Assembly: GCA_905211645.1 (NCBI GenBank)
Contig: CAJMBK010000001.1
Location: forward strand, 155,331 to 219,330
Length of the DNA stretch: 64,000 nucleotides
From: an uncultured Bacillales bacterium
GTDB taxonomy: Bacteria > Bacillota_I > Bacilli_A > RFN20 > CAG-288
Reading direction: 5' to 3'
Part shown: piece after piece, positions 3,282-58,950 of the stretch
Layout: every line of letters starts with the position of its first letter
Numbering within the stretch: position 1 is the stretch's first letter
Program-made: the position numbers and the translations under genes
The notes under the pieces: model-generated
Database searches by the model: none
Seen by the model: only the letters and a program-made list of their open reading frames with translations
What the model was told of the DNA's origin: nothing

Positions 3282-5270
3282 ATGATAACTTATGATGCTA
3301 GTCATCCATTTGAGCTTGTAAGTTCTTATAAACCTACCGGTGACCAACCTCAAGCAATTCAAGCATTGTTAGACGGATTAAAAGCCAACAAACAATTCCA
3401 AGTTTTGCAAGGTGCAACAGGTACTGGTAAAACTTTTACTATTGCCAATGTTATTTACGGTGCTCAAAGACCAAGTTTAGTTATCGTCCACAATAAAACT
3501 TTAGCCGCTCAGCTTTATTCTGAATTGAAAGAGTTATTCCCTAAGAATAGAGTTGAATATTTCATTTCAAACTTTGACTTCTACCGACCTGAAGCCTACA
3601 TGCCAAAGACTGATACTTACATCGAAAAAGAAGTTAAATCCAACATGGAAATTGAAATGATGAGAGCGAGTGCTGTTAATTCTCTTCTTGAAAGAAGAGA
3701 TACAATTGTTGTTTGCTCAGTTGCTTCAATATATGGTTTAACAGATCCTGATGAATACGAAGGATTAGTTTTTGATTTAAGAGTTGGTGAAGAATTTGAT
3801 AGAAAGACAGTGGGTTACAAACTCCTTGAAGGTCAATATGCAAGAAATGATATTTCAAGAGATCCAGGTACCTTCTCAATTAGAGGTGATATTGTTGATA
3901 TTGTTCCATGTAACAATCAAAACACTTTAATTAGAATCACCTTAGATTTTGATGAAATTGAATCAATTGATGAAATTGATCTCGTCACTGGTGAATTCAT
4001 TAAAACATATGAGAAATACCAAGTATTTCCATGCTATGAACACGCTTCTAGTACAAAAACTATTCGAAGTGTCTGTGCAGATATTGCTAGAGAGCTTGAA
4101 GCAAGATACAAATTCTTCATGGATGAAGATAAGCGTTTGGAAGCAGAAAGAATCGACCAGAGAACTAGATTCGATATTGAGAGTTTACTTGAACAAGGTT
4201 ATTGTTCCGGTATGGAAAACTATTCAAGATACTTTGACGGAAGAAAAGAAGGTGAAATGCCATTCACAATTTTTGACTACTTCCCAAAAGATATGCTTTT
4301 ATTTGTTGATGAATCTCACGTTACTTTCTCACAAATTAAAGGTATGTACTTCGGTGATAGATCAAGAAAAGAAACATTGGTTGAATATGGTTTTAGACTT
4401 CCATCCTGTCTTGATAATAGACCTTTAAAGTTCGATGAATTTGAAAGTAAAATCGTTAATTGTATTTGCACTTCAGCTACACCTGGAGATTATGAACTTG
4501 GCAAAACTAATGGTGAAAAGATTGAACAAATCATCCGACCAACCGGTTTGTTAGATCCAGTAATTGAAGTTAGAAGTTATAAGAATAACCCAGTTTTCGA
4601 TTTGATGGAAGAAATCAAAAAGGGAGCTGAGAAGAATGAACGAACTCTTGTCATTACTTTAACTATTAAAGATGCAAAGAACTTAACCGAATTCTACAAA
4701 CAAAACGGATTGAAAGTTGCTTACATTCAGCACGAAGTTAAGACTTTGGAAAGAACTGAAATTATTTATAAGTTAAGAAAAGGAATCTATGACTGCGTCA
4801 TTGGTATTAACCTTTTAAGGGAAGGTCTTGATATCCCTGAAGTTAGTTTGATTGCAATTTTTGACGCAGATAAGGAAGGTTTCTTACGTTCAACAAGATC
4901 ACTTATCCAGATTGTTGGTCGTGCAGCTAGAAATGAAAATGGTCATGTCATCATGTATGCAGATACAATCAGTGATTCTATGAAAGAAACAATCGATGAA
5001 ACAAAACGTAGAAGATCTATTCAAGAAGCATACAATAAAGAACATAACATTACTCCCAAAACTATTGTTAAACCAATTTTGGAACCAGTTCATATTATTG
5101 ATACAGTTAAAGGTAAGGATATCGATGCTAAAACTTTATCTCGTACTGAACTTCAAAATGAAATTAAGAAGTTGCAGAAGGAGATGAAGAAGAGAGCTCA
5201 CGATATGGATTTCGAAGCTGCAGCAGAATTAAGAGATATCATTATCGAATTACAAGGACAATTAAAATAA
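3282..5270 (+). CDS. uvrB: Excinuclease ABC subunit B
   Basis: 662 aa. Walker A GATGTGKT, beta-hairpin and helicase motifs, C-terminal UVR domain (DFEAAAELRDII). Strong RBS. Confidence 0.95.
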   Translation: MITYDASHPFELVSSYKPTGDQPQAIQALLDGLKANKQFQVLQGATGTGKTFTIANVIYGAQRPSLVIVHNKTLAAQLYSELKELFPKNRVEYFISNFDFYRPEAYMPKTDTYIEKEVKSNMEIEMMRASAVNSLLERRDTIVVCSVASIYGLTDPDEYEGLVFDLRVGEEFDRKTVGYKLLEGQYARNDISRDPGTFSIRGDIVDIVPCNNQNTLIRITLDFDEIESIDEIDLVTGEFIKTYEKYQVFPCYEHASSTKTIRSVCADIARELEARYKFFMDEDKRLEAERIDQRTRFDIESLLEQGYCSGMENYSRYFDGRKEGEMPFTIFDYFPKDMLLFVDESHVTFSQIKGMYFGDRSRKETLVEYGFRLPSCLDNRPLKFDEFESKIVNCICTSATPGDYELGKTNGEKIEQIIRPTGLLDPVIEVRSYKNNPVFDLMEEIKKGAEKNERTLVITLTIKDAKNLTEFYKQNGLKVAYIQHEVKTLERTEIIYKLRKGIYDCVIGINLLREGLDIPEVSLIAIFDADKEGFLRSTRSLIQIVGRAARNENGHVIMYADTISDSMKETIDETKRRRSIQEAYNKEHNITPKTIVKPILEPVHIIDTVKGKDIDAKTLSRTELQNEIKKLQKEMKKRAHDMDFEAAAELRDIIIELQGQLK

Positions 5271-7630: not shown

Positions 7631-8752
7631 CTATTGATTCTCCTTTTGCAATTGAGGTGCTGCTGACTGTGCAAAGACTTGTTCACCGACTAATTCGTCG
7701 AGTAAGTCTTCCATGGTAATCATACCTACAACTTCATCTCGATCATTTTTAACAATAGCGATATGAACTTTTTCGCTGTTAAGTTGATCAAAAATGTCTG
7801 GGATTGAATCAGTTTCTTTAACGTAAATAGGTTGTGTTAAACAACTTCTGATATCCAAATGTGGGTCTTCTGTGAACTCTTTGAAGTAGCTATTAACGTT
7901 TAAAATACCGATAATGTTATCTTTGTCTTCAAAATAAACAGGGAATCTTGAGTAGACATTACTCATGATAAACTTGTTTAAAGAGTCAGTTGTTAATCCC
8001 TTTAAATCAATAGAAACAATCTTATCTTTTGGAGTTAAGATGTTTGAAATCTTGATTGAATCTAATGCGAATGCCCTTTTTAAGATGTTCAATTCATTAG
8101 GTTCAAATAATGATTCTTCTTTCTCGTTGATATTTTCATCATTGACTGCAGTATCTGCTTGTTCGATAAACTCTTCTTTAGTGAAGATGTTATCTTCTTT
8201 AATCTTGAAGATTTTATGAACAGCTTTAAGAATTAAACTGAAGATGTAAATAACTGGGAATAGTAAGTAGTAACAAATTATATCTGGCCAAGCAAGAATG
8301 TACGCCATTCTGTTTGGGAAAGTCTTCGACAGAATTTTAGGAACAGTGTCTGAAACAACATAAATCAAACATGCCATGATAATTGTTGAGATGATACCAA
8401 CAACTTCCTCTTGGTATGTGTTGATGAAAATGTTGTAGAACAAAACTGTAGAGAAGGTTGTCATCAAAGTTTGAACAATGTTGTTACCGACTAAAACAGT
8501 AATTAAAGTATTGTCAAATTTTTCAACTAACTTAACGATAATTTTCGCTGTTAGTTTACCTTCATCTGCGAGAACTTTAAAATGATATTTGTTACAGTTA
8601 CTAAAAGCATTTTCTGATGCACTGAAAACACCAGAAACAATCAATAAAATGGCAATAACGAGCCAGGCAGCCCAAGTAGGCATGCCATAAACGGTCTCAT
8701 TGACCTGTGTAGTATTACTTAAAAATAAATTAAAATTTGAGTACGGATCCAT
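7631..8752 (-). CDS. CNNM/HlyC-family protein (DUF21 + CBS pair, shorter paralog)
   Basis: Paralog of the downstream gene. TM DUF21 region plus CBS pair. Ends with MEDLLDELVGEQVF. Confidence 0.65.
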   Translation of the reverse strand: MDPYSNFNLFLSNTTQVNETVYGMPTWAAWLVIAILLIVSGVFSASENAFSNCNKYHFKVLADEGKLTAKIIVKLVEKFDNTLITVLVGNNIVQTLMTTFSTVLFYNIFINTYQEEVVGIISTIIMACLIYVVSDTVPKILSKTFPNRMAYILAWPDIICYYLLFPVIYIFSLILKAVHKIFKIKEDNIFTKEEFIEQADTAVNDENINEKEESLFEPNELNILKRAFALDSIKISNILTPKDKIVSIDLKGLTTDSLNKFIMSNVYSRFPVYFEDKDNIIGILNVNSYFKEFTEDPHLDIRSCLTQPIYVKETDSIPDIFDQLNSEKVHIAIVKNDRDEVVGMITMEDLLDELVGEQVFAQSAAPQLQKENQ

Positions 8753-8798
8753 ATTTAAAATAAATTTTGCAAAAATATTATCAAAAAATCAAGAATTA

Positions 8799-10079
8799 TT
8801 ATTTGACGTTTTTGGTCTTCCAAGCCTTAATGGCTTGCAATGATTCGTCATAAACTCTTTCTTTATCTTTCTTATTTGGTGAATATAAAATGCCGTAAGT
8901 TGCATTCATTGGAGCAAAATGTTTTGGACTTGTCATAACTAAGTAGTTAACTAAAGAACCTAACATTGTGTTAAGTGGAATGTAACCTGGCTCTTTTCCT
9001 TCTAAGTAATCTCTAACATAGAAGCTGACAAGTAAACCCATTGCTGCAGATTCAACATAACCTTCAACACCTGATAATTGACCGGCTAAAAAGATGTTAG
9101 GTTTTGCTTTCAAAGAAAGATTTCTATTTAAAACAGCTGGTGCATTAACACATGTGTTTTTATGCATTAAACCAAATCTAGCAAATTTAACATTTTCTAA
9201 ACCTGGAAGAGAAGTGATCAATTCCTTTTGCGCTTGATAGGTTAAATTTGTTTGGAAACCAACCATGTTATACAAAGTTTTAGCAGCATCATCCTGTCTT
9301 AATTGGATAACGGCAAAGACATCTTTATCTTCTGTGATTCCTTTTGGAGACATTGGACCAAATCTAAGTGTGTTTGGACCTCTTGAAGCAATAACTTCAA
9401 TTGGTAAACAACCTTCAAAATGGGAGTTATCATGTGTCATAACTTTTGGAGATGACAATAATTTATCAACAAAATCAAAGTATTGATCTTTATTTAAAAG
9501 GATATTCAAGTAGTTTGAGTTTTCGTCACCAACTTTGTATTTACTACCTTTAACCATTTTTGAAGTATCCATGGTTGAAGCGAATAATAGTGGTGAAGCA
9601 GCATCAAAGAATGAGAAAAATGAATTTCCAATAACTGACATCAATGAATTACTTAAAGCAGAACTGGTTAATGGACCAGTTGCTAAAATTGTGGGTTCAT
9701 CAGTTAACTCAGTGTATTCTTTAGAGATAATCTTGATGTTAGGATTATTTTTAATTTTCTCAGTGATATAACCGGAAAACTTTTCTCTATCGACAACTAA
9801 GTCATCACTTCCTTCAATTCGAGCAAAATTAGCAGCTTCCATGAATAAAGAACCAAGAGATTCCATTTCAGACTTTAAAAGTCCTGAAGCATTTGTTTTC
9901 AAATAGGATTTGAAAGAGTTTGAGCAAACTAATTCTGCTAATAAATCTTTAGAAGATTGAGCCTCATTCATTGAATCAGGCTTTGTATCATATAAATGAA
10001 CTTCATAACCAAGTTTAGCAAGTTGATAACTTGCTTCACAACCTGCTAAACCAGCTCCAATAACATTAATTTTCTTCAT
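8799..10079 (-). CDS. trmFO: Methylenetetrahydrofolate--tRNA-(uracil54-C5)-methyltransferase TrmFO (Gid)
   Basis: N-terminal FAD Rossmann motif MKKINVIGAGLAGCEASYQLA. Conserved position downstream of topA. Confidence 0.9.
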   Translation of the reverse strand: MKKINVIGAGLAGCEASYQLAKLGYEVHLYDTKPDSMNEAQSSKDLLAELVCSNSFKSYLKTNASGLLKSEMESLGSLFMEAANFARIEGSDDLVVDREKFSGYITEKIKNNPNIKIISKEYTELTDEPTILATGPLTSSALSNSLMSVIGNSFFSFFDAASPLLFASTMDTSKMVKGSKYKVGDENSNYLNILLNKDQYFDFVDKLLSSPKVMTHDNSHFEGCLPIEVIASRGPNTLRFGPMSPKGITEDKDVFAVIQLRQDDAAKTLYNMVGFQTNLTYQAQKELITSLPGLENVKFARFGLMHKNTCVNAPAVLNRNLSLKAKPNIFLAGQLSGVEGYVESAAMGLLVSFYVRDYLEGKEPGYIPLNTMLGSLVNYLVMTSPKHFAPMNATYGILYSPNKKDKERVYDESLQAIKAWKTKNVK

Positions 10080-12234
10080 CTTCTTCTTTCTTTTGTGGCT
10101 TCAAGCTTTCAGTGTAATCACACTCTGGGAAGTTTGAGCAAGCGAGGAATGAGATACGACCTTTCTTAGTGTGTTTAACGATCATATGACCTTTACCACA
10201 CTTAGGACAAATTCTACCACCTTCTACTTGAGGTTTTTCATTGCCTTCGATGTATCTACATTTAGGGAAATTATCGCAAGCGACAAATTCACCTCTATTT
10301 GAATGTTTGACAACTAAACGACCGCCACATTTTGGACAGACTTTACCTTCAACATATTCTTTTTCTTTCTTTTCAATGTATTTACATTGTGGGAAGCCAG
10401 AACATGCGACAAACATACCGTATTTAGAATGTTTTTCAATTAAAGGTCTTCCACACATTGGGCAAAGTCTACCGACTTCTTTATCTTTAATCTTCTCCAT
10501 ATTTTGCAATGCATTTTCATACATTGGGAAGAATTCATCACAAAAGTCCTTCAAAAGTTTATTTCTTGAAGAGTCACCAGCAACAACATGATCCAAATCG
10601 GATTCCATGCTTGCTGTGTATGATGCAGAGATGAATTTAGGGAAGAATTCAGATAATTTTTCAACTGTTAAGATACCTTGTTCTGTTGGAGTTAAAGTAC
10701 CTTTTGAAACATCAGCGTATTTTCTATCTTCCAATGTTGCGATTGTAGAAGCATAAGTTGAAGGTCTTCCAATACCATTCTCTTCCATCAAACGGACAAT
10801 TCTACCTTCAGTATATCTAAGTGGTGGCTTAGTGAAATGTTGAGTAGGAATTGTCTTATCGAGTTCAATTTCTGAACCGATAGTTAAATTAGGTAATTCG
10901 CTATCCTTTTGATATGTTTCATAATCACCATAAACTTTGGAATAACCATCGAAAACGTTCTTGTAAGCTTTTGCTTCAAATAGATAACCGTTTCCTTCCA
11001 AGGTTAAAGTTGTGACATCATCTTCTTTATTTGACATCAAAGATGATAAGGCACGTGCATAAATCAACTTATATAATGCTAATTCATCTTTTGTTAAGAA
11101 AGGTTTCAAAACTTCAGGTGTTAGAGATAAATCTGTAGGTCTGATAGCTTCGTGACCATCTTGGATATTCTTACTAGATTTTTCTTTATGGATCTTACCT
11201 AAATATTTTTCACCGTAGTTATCTAAGATATATTGATTTGCTGATTCAACAAATTCTGGAGAAAGTCTTTCAGAGTCGGTACGCATGTAGGTAATTAAAC
11301 CTTTGAATGTGCCATCAATCTCCTTTCCTTCATAAAGATGTTGAGCAATTAAAGCAGTCTTCTTGGTTGAAAAATGATATTGAGAGAATGCTGCTTGTTG
11401 CATTGTTGATGTAGTAAAAGGCGATTTCGATTTACTTTTAACTCGCTTAGTTTCCAAATCTTTAACTTTGAATTCTTTAGGAAGAGCAGCAATGATTGAT
11501 TCCATTTCTGCTTGAGAACCAATCTTTTGCTTGTTTACGTCTTCTTCAGATTTGTTGGTAGTTTCAATTTCTCTATCAACAAATTTGATTTCCTTTTCAG
11601 AGTCCTTATATCCTTTTAATGTAGCAACAACTTTTTCATCGTTGAAGAGACCAGCAAGAGTCCAGTATTCTTCACTTTGGAAGGCTTGGATTTCTTTTTC
11701 TCTATCAACTAAGAATTTAAGTGTAACGGATTGAACTCTACCTGCGGAACGGGATTTAATCTTGGAGTGAAGCAATGTAGATAATTTGAAACCGATGATT
11801 CTGTCAATAATTCTTCTTGTTTCTTGGCTAGCAACAAGATTCATATCGATAGTTCTTGGATTCTCCATTGCTTTCAAGATTGCAGATTTGGTAACTTCAT
11901 GGAATTCAAGACGCTTAGTTGTATCAATAGGTAAACCTAAAACTTCAGCGATGTGCCATGAAATAGCCTCACCTTCTCTATCAGGGTCGGTTGCAAGAAT
12001 GACTTCGTCAGCATTTGCCATTGCTTTCTTAAGTTTCTTAACAACGTCTTTTTTATCAGCAGGAATTACATAATTAGCTTTAAAATTATTTTCAATATCG
12101 ACACCGAGACCACCTTTACCAGTTGTAGCTAAATCTCTAATATGACCAAGAGAAGCTTCAACTTGATAATCAGATCCTAATATTTGAGATATTGTATGAG
12201 TTTTTGTTGGAGACTCGACGATAATTAACTTCAT
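10066..12234 (-). CDS. topA: DNA topoisomerase I
   Basis: Toprim N-terminus (MKLIIVESPTK), active-site region, three C-terminal C4 zinc-ribbon repeats. Confidence 0.95.
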   Translation of the reverse strand: MKLIIVESPTKTHTISQILGSDYQVEASLGHIRDLATTGKGGLGVDIENNFKANYVIPADKKDVVKKLKKAMANADEVILATDPDREGEAISWHIAEVLGLPIDTTKRLEFHEVTKSAILKAMENPRTIDMNLVASQETRRIIDRIIGFKLSTLLHSKIKSRSAGRVQSVTLKFLVDREKEIQAFQSEEYWTLAGLFNDEKVVATLKGYKDSEKEIKFVDREIETTNKSEEDVNKQKIGSQAEMESIIAALPKEFKVKDLETKRVKSKSKSPFTTSTMQQAAFSQYHFSTKKTALIAQHLYEGKEIDGTFKGLITYMRTDSERLSPEFVESANQYILDNYGEKYLGKIHKEKSSKNIQDGHEAIRPTDLSLTPEVLKPFLTKDELALYKLIYARALSSLMSNKEDDVTTLTLEGNGYLFEAKAYKNVFDGYSKVYGDYETYQKDSELPNLTIGSEIELDKTIPTQHFTKPPLRYTEGRIVRLMEENGIGRPSTYASTIATLEDRKYADVSKGTLTPTEQGILTVEKLSEFFPKFISASYTASMESDLDHVVAGDSSRNKLLKDFCDEFFPMYENALQNMEKIKDKEVGRLCPMCGRPLIEKHSKYGMFVACSGFPQCKYIEKKEKEYVEGKVCPKCGGRLVVKHSNRGEFVACDNFPKCRYIEGNEKPQVEGGRICPKCGKGHMIVKHTKKGRISFLACSNFPECDYTESLKPQKKEEDEEN

Positions 12235-12342
12235 AATATTAATACCTCTTTTCGCATTGATTATTATTGATAATCGGTGTCAAATGTCAAGCAAAAATAA
12301 TTTCGCTTTTCCTTTATTCTATATTATATAGAATAAGAAAAT

Positions 12343-13167
12343 TTACTCGATTTCGGCTAGATATTCCTTTTTATCAAATTTCTTTGGAAGTAAGTTTTTG
12401 ATGTCTTTTGCAGAGTTGATTAGATAGGCTCCGTCTTTAATTGCGTTGTTAGTTAATTGGAAATCATCCACTCTTTGAGGAAGGCAACAGATTGTTTTAC
12501 CCATCTGCAATGCATAGCGTAAAGTGATACTTGTTCCAGACTTATCCTTTGCTTCTGGGATGAAAATTAAGTCAGCCATAGCAGCGATAATTCTATTTCG
12601 TGGTGGGAAATGTTCTGCTAATGGTTCAACCATGCAAGGATATTCGGAAACAACTAAACCTTTTCCAGATGAGCAGTACTCATAAATATCTTTAGAATTA
12701 TTAGGATAATAACGATCGATTCCATTTCCCATAACTGCAATTGTAGGTTTATTGTATTTCATTGCGAGTCTGTGAGCGATTGAGTCAATACCATAAGCCA
12801 TACCGGAAACAATGACGATATTATCAATTGTTTTAATAAGCTCCTCTAAAAAATCCTCAGTGTACTTTGTTGAGTAGTGATTTGGATTTCGAGTACCTAC
12901 AACTGAGACTCTTATATATTTATCAGATAATAGGTCTTTATTTCCGTAATAGAAAAGCGCAATAGGAGGTTGAGGAGTCTCCCTGAAGTAATCTGGATAC
13001 TCTCTTTCTCCAATTACAATGCACGGTGTTTTGCACTGGATGTTGCATTCATTGAGCTCCTCATCAGTGAATCTTTTCTTTTCCTTAATAATAGCGAACT
13101 CGGTATTCCAGTCCCCTTTTCCGTAGTAAGCTACATTTCTTAATAATGTTTGTCTATCAATAACCAT
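12343..13167 (-). CDS. dprA: DNA-processing protein DprA (Smf), short form
   Basis: Rossmann-like DprA core. Conserved topA-dprA-rnhB-rbgA neighbourhood. Confidence 0.8.
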   Translation of the reverse strand: MVIDRQTLLRNVAYYGKGDWNTEFAIIKEKKRFTDEELNECNIQCKTPCIVIGEREYPDYFRETPQPPIALFYYGNKDLLSDKYIRVSVVGTRNPNHYSTKYTEDFLEELIKTIDNIVIVSGMAYGIDSIAHRLAMKYNKPTIAVMGNGIDRYYPNNSKDIYEYCSSGKGLVVSEYPCMVEPLAEHFPPRNRIIAAMADLIFIPEAKDKSGTSITLRYALQMGKTICCLPQRVDDFQLTNNAIKDGAYLINSAKDIKNLLPKKFDKKEYLAEIE

Positions 13168-13220
13168 AAATTATTTCTCCTTTCACCCTATATATCGCAT
13201 GAGAGAAGAAAAAATTTAAA

Positions 13221-13892
13221 TTAAATTTCAAAAATATTAAATTTTTTTACCGGAGTGAAAGTTTTTCTATGTTCACCTTCGATAATTCCATATTCTTCGA
13301 TGGCTTCAAGATGCTTTTTAGTTCCATATCCTTTATTATTCTTGAAATCGTATTGAGGATATTTCTTATCAAGTTCAATCATGTATCTATCCCTTGAAAC
13401 TTTGGCTAGTATTGATGCGCATGCAACAGAAAAACTTGTTGCGTCACCTTTTGGAATAGAAATAAGTTCGACATCCCCAGTATTTATTTTCATGTAATCG
13501 GTGATTGCAGTTTTAATTTGATGTTTACTTAATAATTCGTTGAATGCAATTTGCATTCCTTTTCTACTTGATTCAAGGATGTTGATTTCGTCAATTTCAT
13601 CAGCAGAAATCTTTATTATTTTATAATCAATAGCATTTTCTATAATTAGATTGAATAGATAGTCTCTTTCTGCTTCAGTTAATTTTTTACTGTCATTAAT
13701 TAATCCGTTATGAAAATCTGGTTTCATGATTACTCCAGCACAAAATACTGGGCCACAAAGTGGACCTCGACCTGCTTCATCAGCCCCAAAGATTAAATCA
13801 TTTTTATCATCACGAAAACTGTCATCAAACTCGTTGAGTTTGGTGGCAACATTCATAGCTGATTTTATCTTTTCTTCAAGGTGTTTAGTCAT
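13221..13892 (-). CDS. rnhB: Ribonuclease HII
   Basis: Active-site motif GADEAGRGPLCGPV. Confidence 0.9.
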   Translation of the reverse strand: MTKHLEEKIKSAMNVATKLNEFDDSFRDDKNDLIFGADEAGRGPLCGPVFCAGVIMKPDFHNGLINDSKKLTEAERDYLFNLIIENAIDYKIIKISADEIDEINILESSRKGMQIAFNELLSKHQIKTAITDYMKINTGDVELISIPKGDATSFSVACASILAKVSRDRYMIELDKKYPQYDFKNNKGYGTKKHLEAIEEYGIIEGEHRKTFTPVKKFNIFEI

Positions 13893-14754
13893 CGAGATAG
13901 ATTGGTCCTAACAAACCGTTTTGGAAATCTTTGTAGATCATCATCTTGACTCTATCATAGTCGATAATATTACCTTTAGTTAAAATATTTCTTGAAGTTC
14001 CAACTTTTTCAAGTAATTCTAAAGTTGTTTCAAAATCACCGATATTATACTTTGATTTTGTAGCTTCATAATGGTTGTTTTTAATGATTTCAAATAAGTA
14101 ATCAAAGAGTTCATCAAAAGGTAAAACATCGAGTTTAACTGAGCCTAATAAGGCTAAGTTCATGATGACTTTTTTATCTTTATAATTAGGTTCCAAAATT
14201 CCAGGAGTATCGAAAACTTCTACACGTTTTGTGACTTTAAAAAGTGTTGTGGTTCTTGTTTTACCTGGTTTATTTTCAACTTGGGCTCTCTTCTTTTTGA
14301 AAAGATTATTAATCAATGTTGATTTACCAACATTTGGAATACCAACGATTGCAAAAGCAGCTGGTGGTAGTGGAAAATTATGCTTTAAGTATTTCTCATC
14401 TTGAGGGAATCTCAAAGTTTCCAAGTAGTCTAAAAGGACTTGGCTTGAATTATTTTTATTTAAATCTAATGCCAAATATTTAACGTTTTCCTTGGTGTTT
14501 TCTTGGATAAATTTATTAACTTTATTTTTATCAGCTAAATCAATCTTAGAAAGAATGTAGATAATTCTGGAAACATTGCTCTTTTGGAAGATGGAATGTA
14601 AACCTTCAGGAAATGATGATTCTGGACTTCTTGCGTCCAAAATAACGATGATTCCTTGGCAGGTTTTAACGATATTTTCCATCTGGTTAAGAGCTTTTTT
14701 CATATGACCAGGGAAGTACTGAAAGTTTTTAATGTTGTTATTTTTATTTTCCAT
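13885..14754 (-). CDS. rbgA: Ribosome biogenesis GTPase A (YlqF/RbgA)
   Basis: Circularly permuted GTPase. FPGHMKKA near the N-terminus. G1 GIPNVGKSTLIN. Confidence 0.85.
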   Translation of the reverse strand: MENKNNNIKNFQYFPGHMKKALNQMENIVKTCQGIIVILDARSPESSFPEGLHSIFQKSNVSRIIYILSKIDLADKNKVNKFIQENTKENVKYLALDLNKNNSSQVLLDYLETLRFPQDEKYLKHNFPLPPAAFAIVGIPNVGKSTLINNLFKKKRAQVENKPGKTRTTTLFKVTKRVEVFDTPGILEPNYKDKKVIMNLALLGSVKLDVLPFDELFDYLFEIIKNNHYEATKSKYNIGDFETTLELLEKVGTSRNILTKGNIIDYDRVKMMIYKDFQNGLLGPIYLDD

Positions 14755-54552: not shown

Positions 54553-56322
54553 ATGGATCAAAGGATTAAAGTCTTTGATTCAGTTAGAAAATATAAGTGG
54601 TATTTCGTAGTTGGACCATTACTTAAAGCCTTTGAAACAGTAGTTGATTTGATCGTTCCATTAATCATGAAAAATATTCTTGATTACATGGTTCAAGGTC
54701 ATAGCCAAGATGAGTGTTTATATTATCTTTTTACAAGATTAGCTTTAATTATTTCATTGTGCTTACTCGGTTTCACTTTTACTATGATTTGCCAATACAT
54801 CGCATCCGTTGCGGCACAAAAAGTTTCTAACGATGTAAGAATTAAATTATTTAATCATATTACAAGCTTCTCAGTTAAGGATGTTGAATCATTTCCCGAT
54901 GGATATTTAAATACCTGTTTAACAACTGATACAACCTATGTTCAAACCGGTGTTTTACACTTTATCCGTTTGGTTTCCAGAGCGCCATTTCTTATTATCG
55001 GGGCTTTGATTATCACATTCATATTCGACTGGTCAATCGGTTTACTTTTCTTAGCCACAATTCCAATTATCTGCTTCATCGTTTTCTTTGTCATGAGAAA
55101 ATCCAGTAAGCAGTACACAATCTTACAAAAAGAACTTGATGAACTCACTTCATTAACCTCTGACACAATCACTGGTAACAGAGTTATCAGAGCTTTCAAC
55201 AGAGAAGATTATCAAAAGGAAATGTTTCAAAAGGAAAGTGAATACTACGCCAAACTTGGTCGTAAGGTCAGTTTTATCAACGCATTCATCAATCCTTTAG
55301 TTTACATGGTCATCAATGTTGCGATCGTTTTGGTTGTTTACATTTCTGGTATGAAAATTGATGGAGTTATTACAACTCCAGGTGGTAATAAACTAGAAGC
55401 AACCACAGTCATCGCTTTAGTTAATTACCTTGAGCAAATTTTTATTGCACTTATTGTTATCACAAACTTAGTCAATATTTTCACCAGAGCAGGAATTTCT
55501 TCCAGACGTATCAACAAGATTTTTGCTAAGAAAGCATCAATTGCTAACGATGGTAAAAAGATTGTCAAAGAGATTGAAAAAGGTGAACCTTTATATCAAT
55601 TTGAAAATGTTACTTTTGCTTATGAAGATGAAGGTAATAAGACTTTAACCGATATTAATTTCACCGTTAATAAAGGAGAAAAAGTTGGTGTTATCGGTGG
55701 TACCGGTTGTGGTAAATCAACTTTAGCAAAATGTTTACTCAGAATGGTTGATGCCACAGAAGGAACCGTGAAATATAAAGGTGAAAAGATATCAGACTAC
55801 GATTTACCAACTTTACATAATGAAGTTGGAATGGTTTATCAAAAGTCAGTTTTATTCAAAGGTACCATCAAGTCTAACATGCTTATGGCTAATAAGAATT
55901 TAACTGATGAAGAGATTATCAAATCCTTAAAAGATGCCCTTGCCTACGAATTTATTTCTAACTATTCAGATACTATCAACCATGAAGTTGAAGAAGGTGG
56001 TAGAAACTTTTCTGGTGGTCAAAAACAACGTATCTCAATCGCAAGAATCTTAGCTAAGAATCCTGAAGTTATGATCTTTGACGATTCTACTTCTGCTCTT
56101 GATTATCTTTCCGATTTAACAGTTAGAAAGAATATTGAAACTAAATACAGCGATAAAACTATTTTCTACATCTCTCAACGTGTTTCTACAATTAGAAACT
56201 GTGACAAGATCATCGTTATGGATCATGGTCAAGTTGTTGGAGTTGGAACTCATGATGATTTGTTAAATAGCAATCTTGTTTATCAAGAAATCTATCGCTC
56301 TCAAACAAAGGAGGCAAACTAA
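54553..56322 (+). CDS. ABC exporter, fused permease/ATPase (half-transporter 1 of a heterodimeric pair)
   Basis: 6 TM + NBD. Walker A GGTGCGKST, signature FSGGQKQR, Walker B MIFDDSTSALD. Confidence 0.85.
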   Translation: MDQRIKVFDSVRKYKWYFVVGPLLKAFETVVDLIVPLIMKNILDYMVQGHSQDECLYYLFTRLALIISLCLLGFTFTMICQYIASVAAQKVSNDVRIKLFNHITSFSVKDVESFPDGYLNTCLTTDTTYVQTGVLHFIRLVSRAPFLIIGALIITFIFDWSIGLLFLATIPIICFIVFFVMRKSSKQYTILQKELDELTSLTSDTITGNRVIRAFNREDYQKEMFQKESEYYAKLGRKVSFINAFINPLVYMVINVAIVLVVYISGMKIDGVITTPGGNKLEATTVIALVNYLEQIFIALIVITNLVNIFTRAGISSRRINKIFAKKASIANDGKKIVKEIEKGEPLYQFENVTFAYEDEGNKTLTDINFTVNKGEKVGVIGGTGCGKSTLAKCLLRMVDATEGTVKYKGEKISDYDLPTLHNEVGMVYQKSVLFKGTIKSNMLMANKNLTDEEIIKSLKDALAYEFISNYSDTINHEVEEGGRNFSGGQKQRISIARILAKNPEVMIFDDSTSALDYLSDLTVRKNIETKYSDKTIFYISQRVSTIRNCDKIIVMDHGQVVGVGTHDDLLNSNLVYQEIYRSQTKEAN

Positions 56323-56323
56323 T

Positions 56324-58072
56324 ATGAATAATAAATTCAAATTTGCAAGCCTCTTCAAATATTTAAAGAAAGACTTACATTTACTTATTCTTTCTTTATT
56401 CTCAGCACTTATTTATGCAGTAAGTATCACTGCAATTCCATTCTTGGTTGGTCTTTCAGTTAACTACATGGTTGAAGGAAATACTGATTTTAAATCTATT
56501 TCAATCATCGTCTTAATAATGGGTATTTTAACTGTAAGCTCAGTTATCTTTGATTACATCTACGAATTTACAGTTGGTGTTTTCTCCTACAATGCAGTTA
56601 ATAGAATTAGAAAAGACCTTTATTCAAAGTATTTGAGTGTTCCAATTTCATATCTAGATTCATCTTCTCAAGGTGATTTAATTCAAAAGAATATTTTGGA
56701 TTGTGAGTACATCACAAACGGTCTTATCTCATTTGTTAAACAACTCTATCTAGGAATTGTAACTGTTATTGTCACCATTGTTTTCATGTTTATTCTCAAT
56801 TACATCTTGGCTTTAGCAGTTTGCTTACTAACTCCATTATCATTTGTTGTTACAAAGTTTGTTTCAAAGACTACTTCAAAGTATTTCAAGAAACAATCAG
56901 CTGCAATGGCAGATCAAAATGGCTTCTCAAATGAGATGATTAATAATTTATCAATCATTCAATCATTCAACTTTGAAGAAGAATCAAATAATATCTACAC
57001 AGAAAAGAATGGTACTTTGTACAAATACGGACAAAAAGCACTTTTCTCATCTTCATGGCCTAATCCAACAACTAGAGTTGTTAATAATATCATCTACTGT
57101 GTAGTTGCTATGATTGCAATCTTACTTTTTGTCTTTGCAGATAGTGTACCAGCAGCAATTCCTGCAGTTGAAATTGGTATTATCGGTTCATTTTTATCCT
57201 ACACAAACCAATACACCAAGCCATTCAATGATATTTCATCTGTCTTATCTGAATTTGGCTTGATGAAAGCAAGTTACAACAGAGTTCATGAACTTTTGAC
57301 TAAAGAAGATGATATCGATGTTGGTCAAAATGAAATCGTCAAACCTGTTGAAGCAATTGATTTCAAGAATATGAATTTCTCCTACGATTCAAGTAGAAAA
57401 CTTATTCAAGATTTCAATTTACATATTTCAAAAGGTCAAAGAATTGCTCTTGTTGGTAAAACTGGTTGTGGAAAAACAACACTTATCAATGTCTTAATGA
57501 GATTCTATGACTATCAATCTGGTGAGATTGATATCGATGGTATCAAGACTTTGGACATCAAGAAGTCGAGTTTGAGAAATAAGTTTGCAATGGTTTTGCA
57601 AGATAGCTGGTTATTTAACGGAACAATTTATGACAATATCAGATATTCAAAACCTGATGCAACCAAAGAAGAAATTATCGAAGCAAGTAAGAAAGCAAAT
57701 GCTCATAGTTTCATCATGAGAATGCCAAACGGTTATGATACGGTTGTTAGCAATAAATCTGGTCTTTCCGAAGGTGAAAAGCAGTTGTTAACTATCGCAA
57801 GGTGCATGCTTAAAATGCCTGAAATTCTTATTTTGGACGAAGCAACAAGCTCCATCGACACAAGAAGTGAAAGAAAGATTTACTCCGCATTTGATAAGTT
57901 CTTAGAGAATAGAACTTCAATTGTTATCGCTCATAGATTACAAACTATTGTTAATTCAGATTTGATTCTCATGATGGAAAACGGAATCATCGTTGAAAAA
58001 GGAACTCATGAGGAACTTATTGCAAAACATGGTAAGTACTTTGAGTTGTATAATTCTCAATTTGAACATTAA
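56324..58072 (+). CDS. ABC exporter, fused permease/ATPase (half-transporter 2)
   Basis: Walker A GKTGCGKTT, signature LSEGEKQL, Walker B LILDEATSSID. Start at the ATG after AAGGAGG. Confidence 0.85.
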   Translation: MNNKFKFASLFKYLKKDLHLLILSLFSALIYAVSITAIPFLVGLSVNYMVEGNTDFKSISIIVLIMGILTVSSVIFDYIYEFTVGVFSYNAVNRIRKDLYSKYLSVPISYLDSSSQGDLIQKNILDCEYITNGLISFVKQLYLGIVTVIVTIVFMFILNYILALAVCLLTPLSFVVTKFVSKTTSKYFKKQSAAMADQNGFSNEMINNLSIIQSFNFEEESNNIYTEKNGTLYKYGQKALFSSSWPNPTTRVVNNIIYCVVAMIAILLFVFADSVPAAIPAVEIGIIGSFLSYTNQYTKPFNDISSVLSEFGLMKASYNRVHELLTKEDDIDVGQNEIVKPVEAIDFKNMNFSYDSSRKLIQDFNLHISKGQRIALVGKTGCGKTTLINVLMRFYDYQSGEIDIDGIKTLDIKKSSLRNKFAMVLQDSWLFNGTIYDNIRYSKPDATKEEIIEASKKANAHSFIMRMPNGYDTVVSNKSGLSEGEKQLLTIARCMLKMPEILILDEATSSIDTRSERKIYSAFDKFLENRTSIVIAHRLQTIVNSDLILMMENGIIVEKGTHEELIAKHGKYFELYNSQFEH

Positions 58073-58074
58073 AA

Positions 58075-58112
58075 ATTTGGCTAAGAGATTTGGTTCTCTT
58101 AGCCAATATTTA
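58075..58112. terminator. Bidirectional terminator hairpin between convergent genes
   Basis: TTGGCTAAGAGA-TTTGGT-TCTCTTAGCCAA, flanked by A/T runs on both sides. Confidence 0.55.
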
Positions 58113-58781
58113 TTTGAGAAAACTATCGACTACTTCGTCTTTTCCTGTTTTAGTAATCACACCATCTTCGATTAAAAAGACTTTATCTGATAAAGCTTTA
58201 GCACATCTTTTATCATGAGTGATTGTGATAATTGTAGTGTTCTCTTTTTCATTGATTTCATTTAAAACAGAAACTAAATTTCTTAGATTGTTGTAATCTT
58301 GTCCAACTGTTGGTTCATCTAAAATTAAAACTTCTGGTTTACTAGCAAGAATTGCAGCAATAGAAACTCTTCTTTTTTGACCTTCAGAAAGTGAATGAGG
58401 ATGTCTTGAATAGAGGTGGTAAACATCTAATTTCTTAGCGATTTCTTCAGCGTATTCTTTGGAATAACACGAATATTCAAGTTCCTTTTTAACTGTTGGC
58501 ATGAAAAGTTGATAATCTGGGTTTTGGAAAACATAACCAACCTTTTTAATCTTTTCTCTCATCTCAGGTTTGTAGCAATGAACTTTACATGTTGAACAGA
58601 AATGTTTGTTCTTTTTAAAAGGACATCTATCCAACCTAAAGAGAGCATACTCTGCCAGTTCTTTGCATTCAGGACATAGATTTTTACCCCGAGTTTTATG
58701 GTGATGATGGCAATATTTTCTAATCATTATCGGAATGATTTTCTTCTCTTTTTCAAATTTCTTATATTCTTTATTCTTCAT
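58110..58781 (-). CDS. Chimeric ORF: YgbA-like Cys-rich domain fused to an EcfA-like ABC ATPase fragment that lacks Walker A
   Basis: Residues 1-75 (YCHHHHKTRGKNLCPECKELAEYALFRLDRCPFKKNKHFCSTCKVHCYKPEMREKI) match, as I recall it, the 'nitrous-oxide-stimulated promoter' YgbA family. They are joined directly to VFQNPDYQLF (Q-loop), LSEGQKRR (signature), LILDEP (Walker B) and ITHD (H-loop). No GxxGxGKS/T anywhere. Confidence 0.55.
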   Translation of the reverse strand: MKNKEYKKFEKEKKIIPIMIRKYCHHHHKTRGKNLCPECKELAEYALFRLDRCPFKKNKHFCSTCKVHCYKPEMREKIKKVGYVFQNPDYQLFMPTVKKELEYSCYSKEYAEEIAKKLDVYHLYSRHPHSLSEGQKRRVSIAAILASKPEVLILDEPTVGQDYNNLRNLVSVLNEINEKENTTIITITHDKRCAKALSDKVFLIEDGVITKTGKDEVVDSFLK

Positions 58782-58950
58782 AATTCTCTTATATGTTATC
58801 TATATTTAACAACTGTTAACTACATGCAACATTTTATAGATTTATTACTTAAAAATCTATAGCTAAGTGCACAAATTTCAAGCTTTGACCATTTTGAAAA
58901 AGATTACATACAAAACAGTTTGATAAAATAACTGAGTCAGGAGAAAATTT

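Follow-up and report, generated by a model that had tools for sequence, protein, structure and literature searches.

A chimeric ygbA-ecfA gene in an uncultured gut bacterium is very probably the remnant of a single deletion between short direct repeats

Chimeric pseudogenes that are generated by deletion can arise between short direct repeats, by RecA-independent slipped-strand or illegitimate recombination. The locus that we describe here resembles such remnants in several respects. An intact allele is found at the same locus, a single deletion separates the two forms, an 11-bp repeat marks the breakpoints and one copy of it is left. The 5' part of one gene has been joined to the 3' part of another, and in one lineage secondary decay is seen in the form of a 7-bp duplication. 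There are also differences. The chimera is in frame, has its native start, upstream region and terminator, and is annotated as a two-domain gene. The deletion allele is no one-off event but is common and present in three diverged haplotypes.

The ygbA gene of E. coli and Salmonella is repressed by NsrR and its function is unknown (PMC2884951); for the regulation of ygbA by NsrR, that work cites a prediction (PMC1274295). The ECF module is made up of EcfA, EcfA' and EcfT plus an S component, all of which are needed by ECF transporters (PMC4820897). The chimera shares with the YgbA family (PF11756, PRK10410, 'nitrous oxide-stimulated promoter') the pattern CHHHH / CxxC / RCPF / CxxCxxHC. It lacks, however, the conserved C-terminal VMRYSGPRM...HP.F segment, so that only positions 1-75 of the 106 profile positions are represented, and it is fused, whereas each of the 120 best homologues of the intact YgbA stands alone as a single-domain protein of 108-175 aa. 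Similarly, it keeps the Q-loop, signature, Walker B and H-loop of the ECF ATPases (EcfA/EcfA', CbiO; TIGR04520/TIGR04521), but is devoid of Walker A, of the first ~80 residues of the fold, of the first ATPase domain, and of an accompanying EcfT and S component. Hence, the chimera should not be regarded as a functional member of either family, because its YgbA domain is truncated and its ATPase part fails the ECF cut-offs and has no P-loop.

The window, i.e. the whole stretch of DNA that was analysed, comprises 64,000 nucleotides of a contig from an uncultured Bacillales bacterium with a G+C content of ~33%. A first-pass annotation of this DNA had proposed an open reading frame at 58110-58781, and these coordinates turned out to be exact (minus strand, ATG start, 223 aa). 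Residues 1-81 of the product are the N-terminal first three quarters of a YgbA_NO domain, and residues 82-223 are an ECF-type ABC ATPase domain that runs from the Q-loop to the C-terminus without a Walker A motif. The YgbA-type domain that had been claimed for the N-terminus is borne out by Pfam, since YgbA_NO (PF11756) matches residues 7-82 over profile positions 1-75 of 106 (E 7e-26, 91.1 bits, cut-off 25). The NCBIfam model for PRK10410, NF007714, gives 89.6 bits and is barely above its cut-off of 88. In the second half, Pfam ABC_tran (PF00005) covers residues 72-158 with profile positions 52-136 of 137 (E 8.5e-15). A chance match is ruled out by the Pfam E-values. NCBIfam ECF_ATPase_2 aligns residues 73-216 with profile positions 78-230 of 279 and reaches 123.5 bits, missing its cut-off of 330, and a second NCBIfam ECF ATPase model reaches 102.6 bits and misses its cut-off of 315 (models TIGR04520/TIGR04521). 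The ECF_ATPase_2 score stays far under the cut-off because the first ~77 profile positions, the N-terminal third of the ATPase, are missing.

An EcfA-like ATPase with Q-loop, signature, Walker B and H-loop had been read from the sequence, and all four motifs were located by our motif scan (Table 1). The same holds for the reported lack of Walker A: a regex search of the whole 223 aa with G....GK[ST] and relaxed variants finds no such motif, and not even a bare GK[ST]. At the protein level, the ATPase remnant and the C-terminal end of the intact EcfAA protein (467 aa) of contig L001 agree in 140 of 142 residues. In solved EcfA structures, for example chains 4huq_B and 5jsz_A, the counterpart of the remnant is residues ~80-230; the remnant therefore lacks the P-loop and the initial strands of the fold (~80 residues). 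An AlphaFold2 single-sequence model of the chimera (mean pLDDT 41.9, pTM 0.33) is too poor for interpretation. The tryptic peptide VGYVFQNPDYQLFMPTVK of the chimera is also present in the intact EcfAA, and the segment across the junction reads ...MREKIKKVGYVF...

Table 1. Features of the deleted locus (window coordinates) and of the intact cassette in contigs of the same species.
Feature	Position	Strand	Basis or remark
Right flanking gene, ABC exporter, 582 aa from relatives' start	56324..58072	+	convergent; 99% protein identity to L001 homologue
Bidirectional terminator-like hairpin, 12-bp stem, between chimera and convergent ABC exporter	58077..58106	.	terminator scan, both strands
Chimeric ORF, 223 aa	58110..58781	-	ATG start, stop codon included; ORF list, Pfam and NCBIfam matches
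ATPase remnant (second nucleotide-binding domain of duplicated ECF ATPase), EcfAA residues 326-467 and stop	58110..58538	-	
H-loop ITHD, residues 187-190	58212..58223	-	motif regex and translation
Walker B VLILDE, residues 151-156	58314..58331	-	motif regex and translation
Signature LSEGQ, residues 131-135	58377..58391	-	motif regex and translation
Q-loop VFQN, residues 84-87	58521..58532	-	motif regex and translation
Deletion junction, single remaining repeat copy, core AAAAAGGTT = K79 K80 V81	58539..58547	-	
ygbA-derived part, codons 1-81	58539..58781	-	97% DNA identity to 5' part of intact ygbA, L001-L008
Cys/His-rich motif CHHHH...CPEC...RCPF...FCSTCKVHC	58575..58712	-	translation check
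Intergenic region toward divergent HAD hydrolase gene	58782..58950	.	collinear with upstream region of intact ygbA
Left flanking gene, HAD-family hydrolase, 235 aa	58951..59658	+	same neighbour in intact alleles
ygbA, 113 aa	cassette gene 1		L001-L008
CydD-like ABC exporter, 582 aa	cassette gene 2		L001-L008
CydC-like ABC exporter, 552 aa	cassette gene 3		L001-L008
Trep_Strep/MptD-family ECF S component, 228 aa	cassette gene 4		L001-L008
CbiQ/EcfT, 225 aa	cassette gene 5		L001-L008
Duplicated EcfA-EcfA ATPase (EcfAA), 467 aa	cassette gene 6		L001-L008

Contigs L001-L008 belong to the same species, are ~97% identical to the window at the DNA level, are bordered by the same genes as the window, namely the ABC 582/589 exporter pair at one end and the HAD hydrolase at the other, and carry an intact six-gene cassette in between (Table 1). 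We reached this intact allele via the cluster of the YgbA-only match, a 113-aa protein, and not via the ATPase matches. The first-pass annotation had recommended looking in relatives for a separate ygbA gene with ecfA behind it at this locus; such an arrangement was indeed found, but with four further genes between the two. In L001 the cassette extends from 8001 to 14493, all six genes are read in one direction, and the stop of ygbA overlaps the start of the cydD-like gene by 7 nt. The 113-aa YgbA is the same as the chimera through residue 81, except for Thr/Ala at residue 43, and continues with ...KKVMRYSGPRIVFTHPIFAFSHLK...; it spans positions 1-105 of the 106 in the Pfam profile and scores 138 bits with PF11756 and 124.5 bits with NF007714. 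The intact EcfAA has Walker A motifs at residues 37 and 280, as located by motif scan. Alignment to the intact alleles shows that the chimera is composed of YgbA residues 1-81 and EcfAA residues 326-467.

A BLASTN comparison of the window with L001 yields two collinear segments of 97.4% and 97.3% identity, which share 9 bases of the window (58539..58547) and stand 5821 bp apart in L001, the size of the stretch that is missing from the window. An 11-bp direct repeat, TCAAAAAGGTT, is present at both breakpoints (L001 ~8233-8243 and ~14054-14064), and most intact alleles are alike in this; in L002 the downstream copy reads TTAAAAAGGTT instead. The repeat encodes K79-K80-V81 of YgbA and K323-K324-V325 of EcfAA. 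The switch between the two parts had been placed directly after EMREKI. The chimeric nature of the gene stands, however the exact point is K79-K80-V81, three residues later and common to both parents. Lost from the window are YgbA residues 82-113, both exporters, the S and T components and EcfAA residues 1-325, and both EcfAA Walker A motifs fall inside the deleted stretch. Residues 82-100 of YgbA (VMRYSGPRMLFTHPIFAF.H), which are among the most conserved positions in 37 homologues, are missing from the chimera. With the proteins of the intact allele as queries, tblastn finds no homologue of CbiQ/EcfT or of the Trep_Strep S component within the 64-kb window, in agreement with the earlier statement that neither is encoded nearby.

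We conclude that the chimera is, with high probability, the scar of a single 5821-bp deletion and thus a deletion-generated gene remnant. The ancestral locus carried the six-gene cassette with the repeat TCAAAAAGGTT at ygbA codons 79-81 and again at ecfAA codons 323-325. Recombination or replication slippage between the two repeat copies would then have removed the intervening stretch and left one copy behind. The joint is in frame by chance and leads from the native ygbA start and 81 codons into the last 142 codons of ecfAA with their original stop and terminator. The chimera is genuine yet ordinary, one more case of a known type of event and not a new kind of regulator. Its product is predicted to be without transport or ATPase function and to represent a remnant in decay; should the ygbA promoter still drive transcription of the chimera, the predicted product most likely misfolds or is inert. 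What matters biologically is that strains with the deletion lack the ECF importer as well as the CydDC-like exporter. The first-pass annotation was correct in its description on all checkable points, and of the two readings that it had offered, the deletion-generated pseudogene is upheld by the intact alleles and the 5821-bp deletion, while the novel regulatory fusion is not, given that the fusion is found in one species, has lost conserved parts and is frameshifted in one case.

How widely the fusion is distributed was addressed at the protein and genome level. Among the matches listed in a protein database search with the whole chimera, one 90%-identity cluster contains both domains (P0001, five members), and the remaining matches cover the ATPase part only (<=65% identity) or the YgbA part only. 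The listings of the word-indexed protein search are incomplete, as the intact EcfAA of the same species (~98% over 142 aa) and cluster P0001 were each missed once, and a missing match in this search does not mean absence from the database. A scan with one genome per species returned 80 loci whose similarity is limited to the ATPase part (<=69% identity), with matches starting at about query residue 61-82. Since the searches show the two domains joined nowhere else, the fusion is private to one species-level lineage, and within that species it is present only in some strains. A database protein of 150 aa (P0124) was considered as a second disrupted allele and rejected, the DNA being identical to the window and the difference one of gene calling only. 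The scan of the JGI metagenome collection with the junction and the left-breakpoint sequence gave no match; the collection apparently does not include the species.

The cassette itself is distributed more broadly. With an unfused ygbA, the six genes are syntenic in 37 loci of other species (among L015-L086), and ygbA is fused to ecfA in none of the 37. The hosts include Christensenellales-type gut Clostridia, Borkfalkia, Coproplasma, and Spirochaetes and Acholeplasmatales MAGs, the nearest cassette homologues being those of gut Clostridia/Christensenellales-type MAGs. The recurrence of this gene order, with a stand-alone ygbA, in the 37 loci identifies the intact arrangement as ancestral. The reverse direction, an insertion that completed two genes exactly, is not credible. 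As a side observation, a chicken-gut Clostridia MAG (L065 145..2274, plus strand) encodes a full-length YgbA with all conserved motifs in frame with a CydD-like exporter, giving a protein of 709 aa. Either a true Rosetta-stone fusion or an assembly error of 1 nt could explain it, as the two genes usually overlap.

The non-coding sequences around the chimera are those of the intact locus. The hairpin between the chimera and the convergent exporter gene is the original ecfAA terminator, as the same sequence lies 3' of the intact ecfAA in the 97%-identical right flank. Since the native ygbA upstream region and start codon are kept, the chimera may well still be transcribed. A promoter consensus scan found promoter-like matches no more frequently than in shuffled sequence, so that the sequence offers no argument for expression. 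Directly next to the chimera's start codon lies an imperfect inverted repeat of 32 nt (58780-58811 / 58814-58845), a perfect one of 9 bp, TATAGATTT/AAATCTATA, is located at 58835-58861, and ATCTATA recurs in the region 58780..58861. These elements are candidate operators for the promoter of the ygbA cassette. Rfam and tRNA scans of the window returned a single tRNA-Ser, far from the locus, and nothing else. The flanking HAD hydrolase has 207 aa in L001 (7209..7832) compared to 235 aa in the window and the other loci, and the C-termini differ (...NVFLLLIV in L001, ...NVFLLTHCLINPDD... otherwise), pointing to a frameshift or premature stop in the L001 strain. On the other side, the window contains two heterodimer-type ABC exporter genes at 54553..58072 (589 and 582/598 aa) that are convergent to the chimera. 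This pair is not a replacement copy, because it is only 24-31% identical to the deleted CydDC-like pair.

Three deleted haplotypes with an identical junction can be distinguished: that of the window, whose DNA is the same as in the independent assemblies L095 and L096, that of L009 and that of L010-L014. The last carries an extra 7-bp tandem duplication (ATGTAAA) at about nt 191 of the chimera (locus ~nt 3965-3978). The duplication shifts the frame, and gene callers split the frameshifted chimera into proteins of 67/84 aa and 150/181 aa. This frameshifted haplotype occurs in several Brazilian and other gut metagenome assemblies. Contig counts, which are redundant between sources, amount to ~20 for the intact allele, ~13 for the deleted in-frame form and 10-17 for the deleted frameshifted form. 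As the deletion allele is present in roughly half of the contigs, it is tolerated and the cassette is dispensable in at least some hosts. In their flanks the deleted haplotypes are 2.5-3.9% apart, as much as the whole species; therefore the deletion allele is old or has been spread by recombination.

The degree of divergence also bears on whether the deletion happened once. Independent, recurrent events at the same 11-bp repeat, which would act as a hot spot, are in our view unlikely; they would change the history of the locus and not the nature of the chimera as a remnant. Recurrence would fit with deleted haplotypes that are as distant from each other as from the intact alleles, and with the left-flank tree, in which the intact allele L004 clusters with the deleted haplotype that carries the frameshift. 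Moreover, an 11-bp repeat would yield an identical junction every time. However, the three deleted haplotypes have seven derived sites in common that are absent from every intact allele, three of them clustered in the remnant at positions 345, 349 and 351 (A to S). In the right flank the deleted triple has five private shared sites, compared to <=2 for any other triple of haplotypes, and in the right-flank tree the intact alleles group into a single clade to which no deleted allele belongs. Homologous recombination in the flanks can account for the remaining mosaicism. We therefore interpret the data as a single old deletion, followed by diversification or recombination, with recurrence as a minority alternative.

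A functional neo-gene, in which the YgbA N-terminal domain and a nucleotide-free ABC half-domain are kept together by selection, appears very improbable to us. The same strong doubt applies to the roles that one might think of, such as a redox- or NO-sensing regulator or a donor of the signature motif to another ABC ATPase. Several observations do speak for such a gene and against a remnant. The ORF is open in two of the three deleted haplotypes, which are diverged from each other, and is in frame with start, upstream region and terminator intact, making expression possible. The pairwise pN/pS of the remnant among deleted alleles is 0.20 and thus below 1, and the deletion allele is common in the species. 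The open frame carries no weight, however, because only 6.2% of possible substitutions create stops and the probability that an unconstrained frame is still open after 10 substitutions is ~0.5; it is expected by chance. Part of the divergence behind the value of 0.20 may predate the deletion, and among intact alleles pN/pS is 0.05. Over the 142 codons of the ATPase remnant, synonymous to non-synonymous variant sites are 14:10 in deleted and 20:4 in intact alleles, so that 10 of 24 variants are non-synonymous in the former and 4 of 24 in the latter. The direction of this excess fits relaxed constraint, although it is not significant (Fisher p = 0.11) and the comparison is underpowered. Furthermore, the fusion is confined to some strains of a single species, it is the by-product of a deletion that removed five other genes, it is frameshifted in one lineage, and it has neither the conserved YgbA C-terminus nor the first ~80 residues of the ATPase fold including the P-loop. 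It is hardly to be expected that transcription of the chimera from the ygbA promoter yields a stable protein in which a metal- or redox-active Cys/His domain, with an ABC half-domain replacing its own C-terminus, has a new or dominant-negative role, for example by titrating partners of YgbA or of other ABC ATPases. If true, such a role would account for the high frequency of the deletion allele within the species.

An assembly or binning artefact that joined unrelated pieces at a short repeat was rejected and has a probability close to nil: short repeats can mislead assemblers and all data are metagenomic, but the identical junction recurs in contigs of up to 240 kb in SPAdes, MEGAHIT, Logan unitig and NCBI assemblies from different samples and in three sequence-distinct haplotypes, the 11-bp repeat is far shorter than assembly k-mers, and both flanks are collinear with the intact locus, with identical gene order. 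A paralogous locus was likewise rejected, because the order of the flanking genes is identical in the intact contigs and the junction recurs in many assemblies.

A gene remnant left by one old deletion thus accounts best for the chimera, and it provides a clean example of how a deletion between short repeats creates an ORF that mimics a novel domain architecture and is annotated as a two-domain protein. For the species, the locus is a presence/absence polymorphism in an uncultured gut bacterium, with about half of the contigs lacking a dedicated ECF importer and a CydDC-like exporter. The chimera itself is of little importance, and the side observation on the cassette is more useful. YgbA heads a widely conserved cassette that also encodes a pair of CydDC-like exporters and the Trep_Strep/MptD ECF transporter, which offers a testable context for its unknown function, and the apparent fusion of YgbA with a CydD-like exporter in one MAG adds to this clue.
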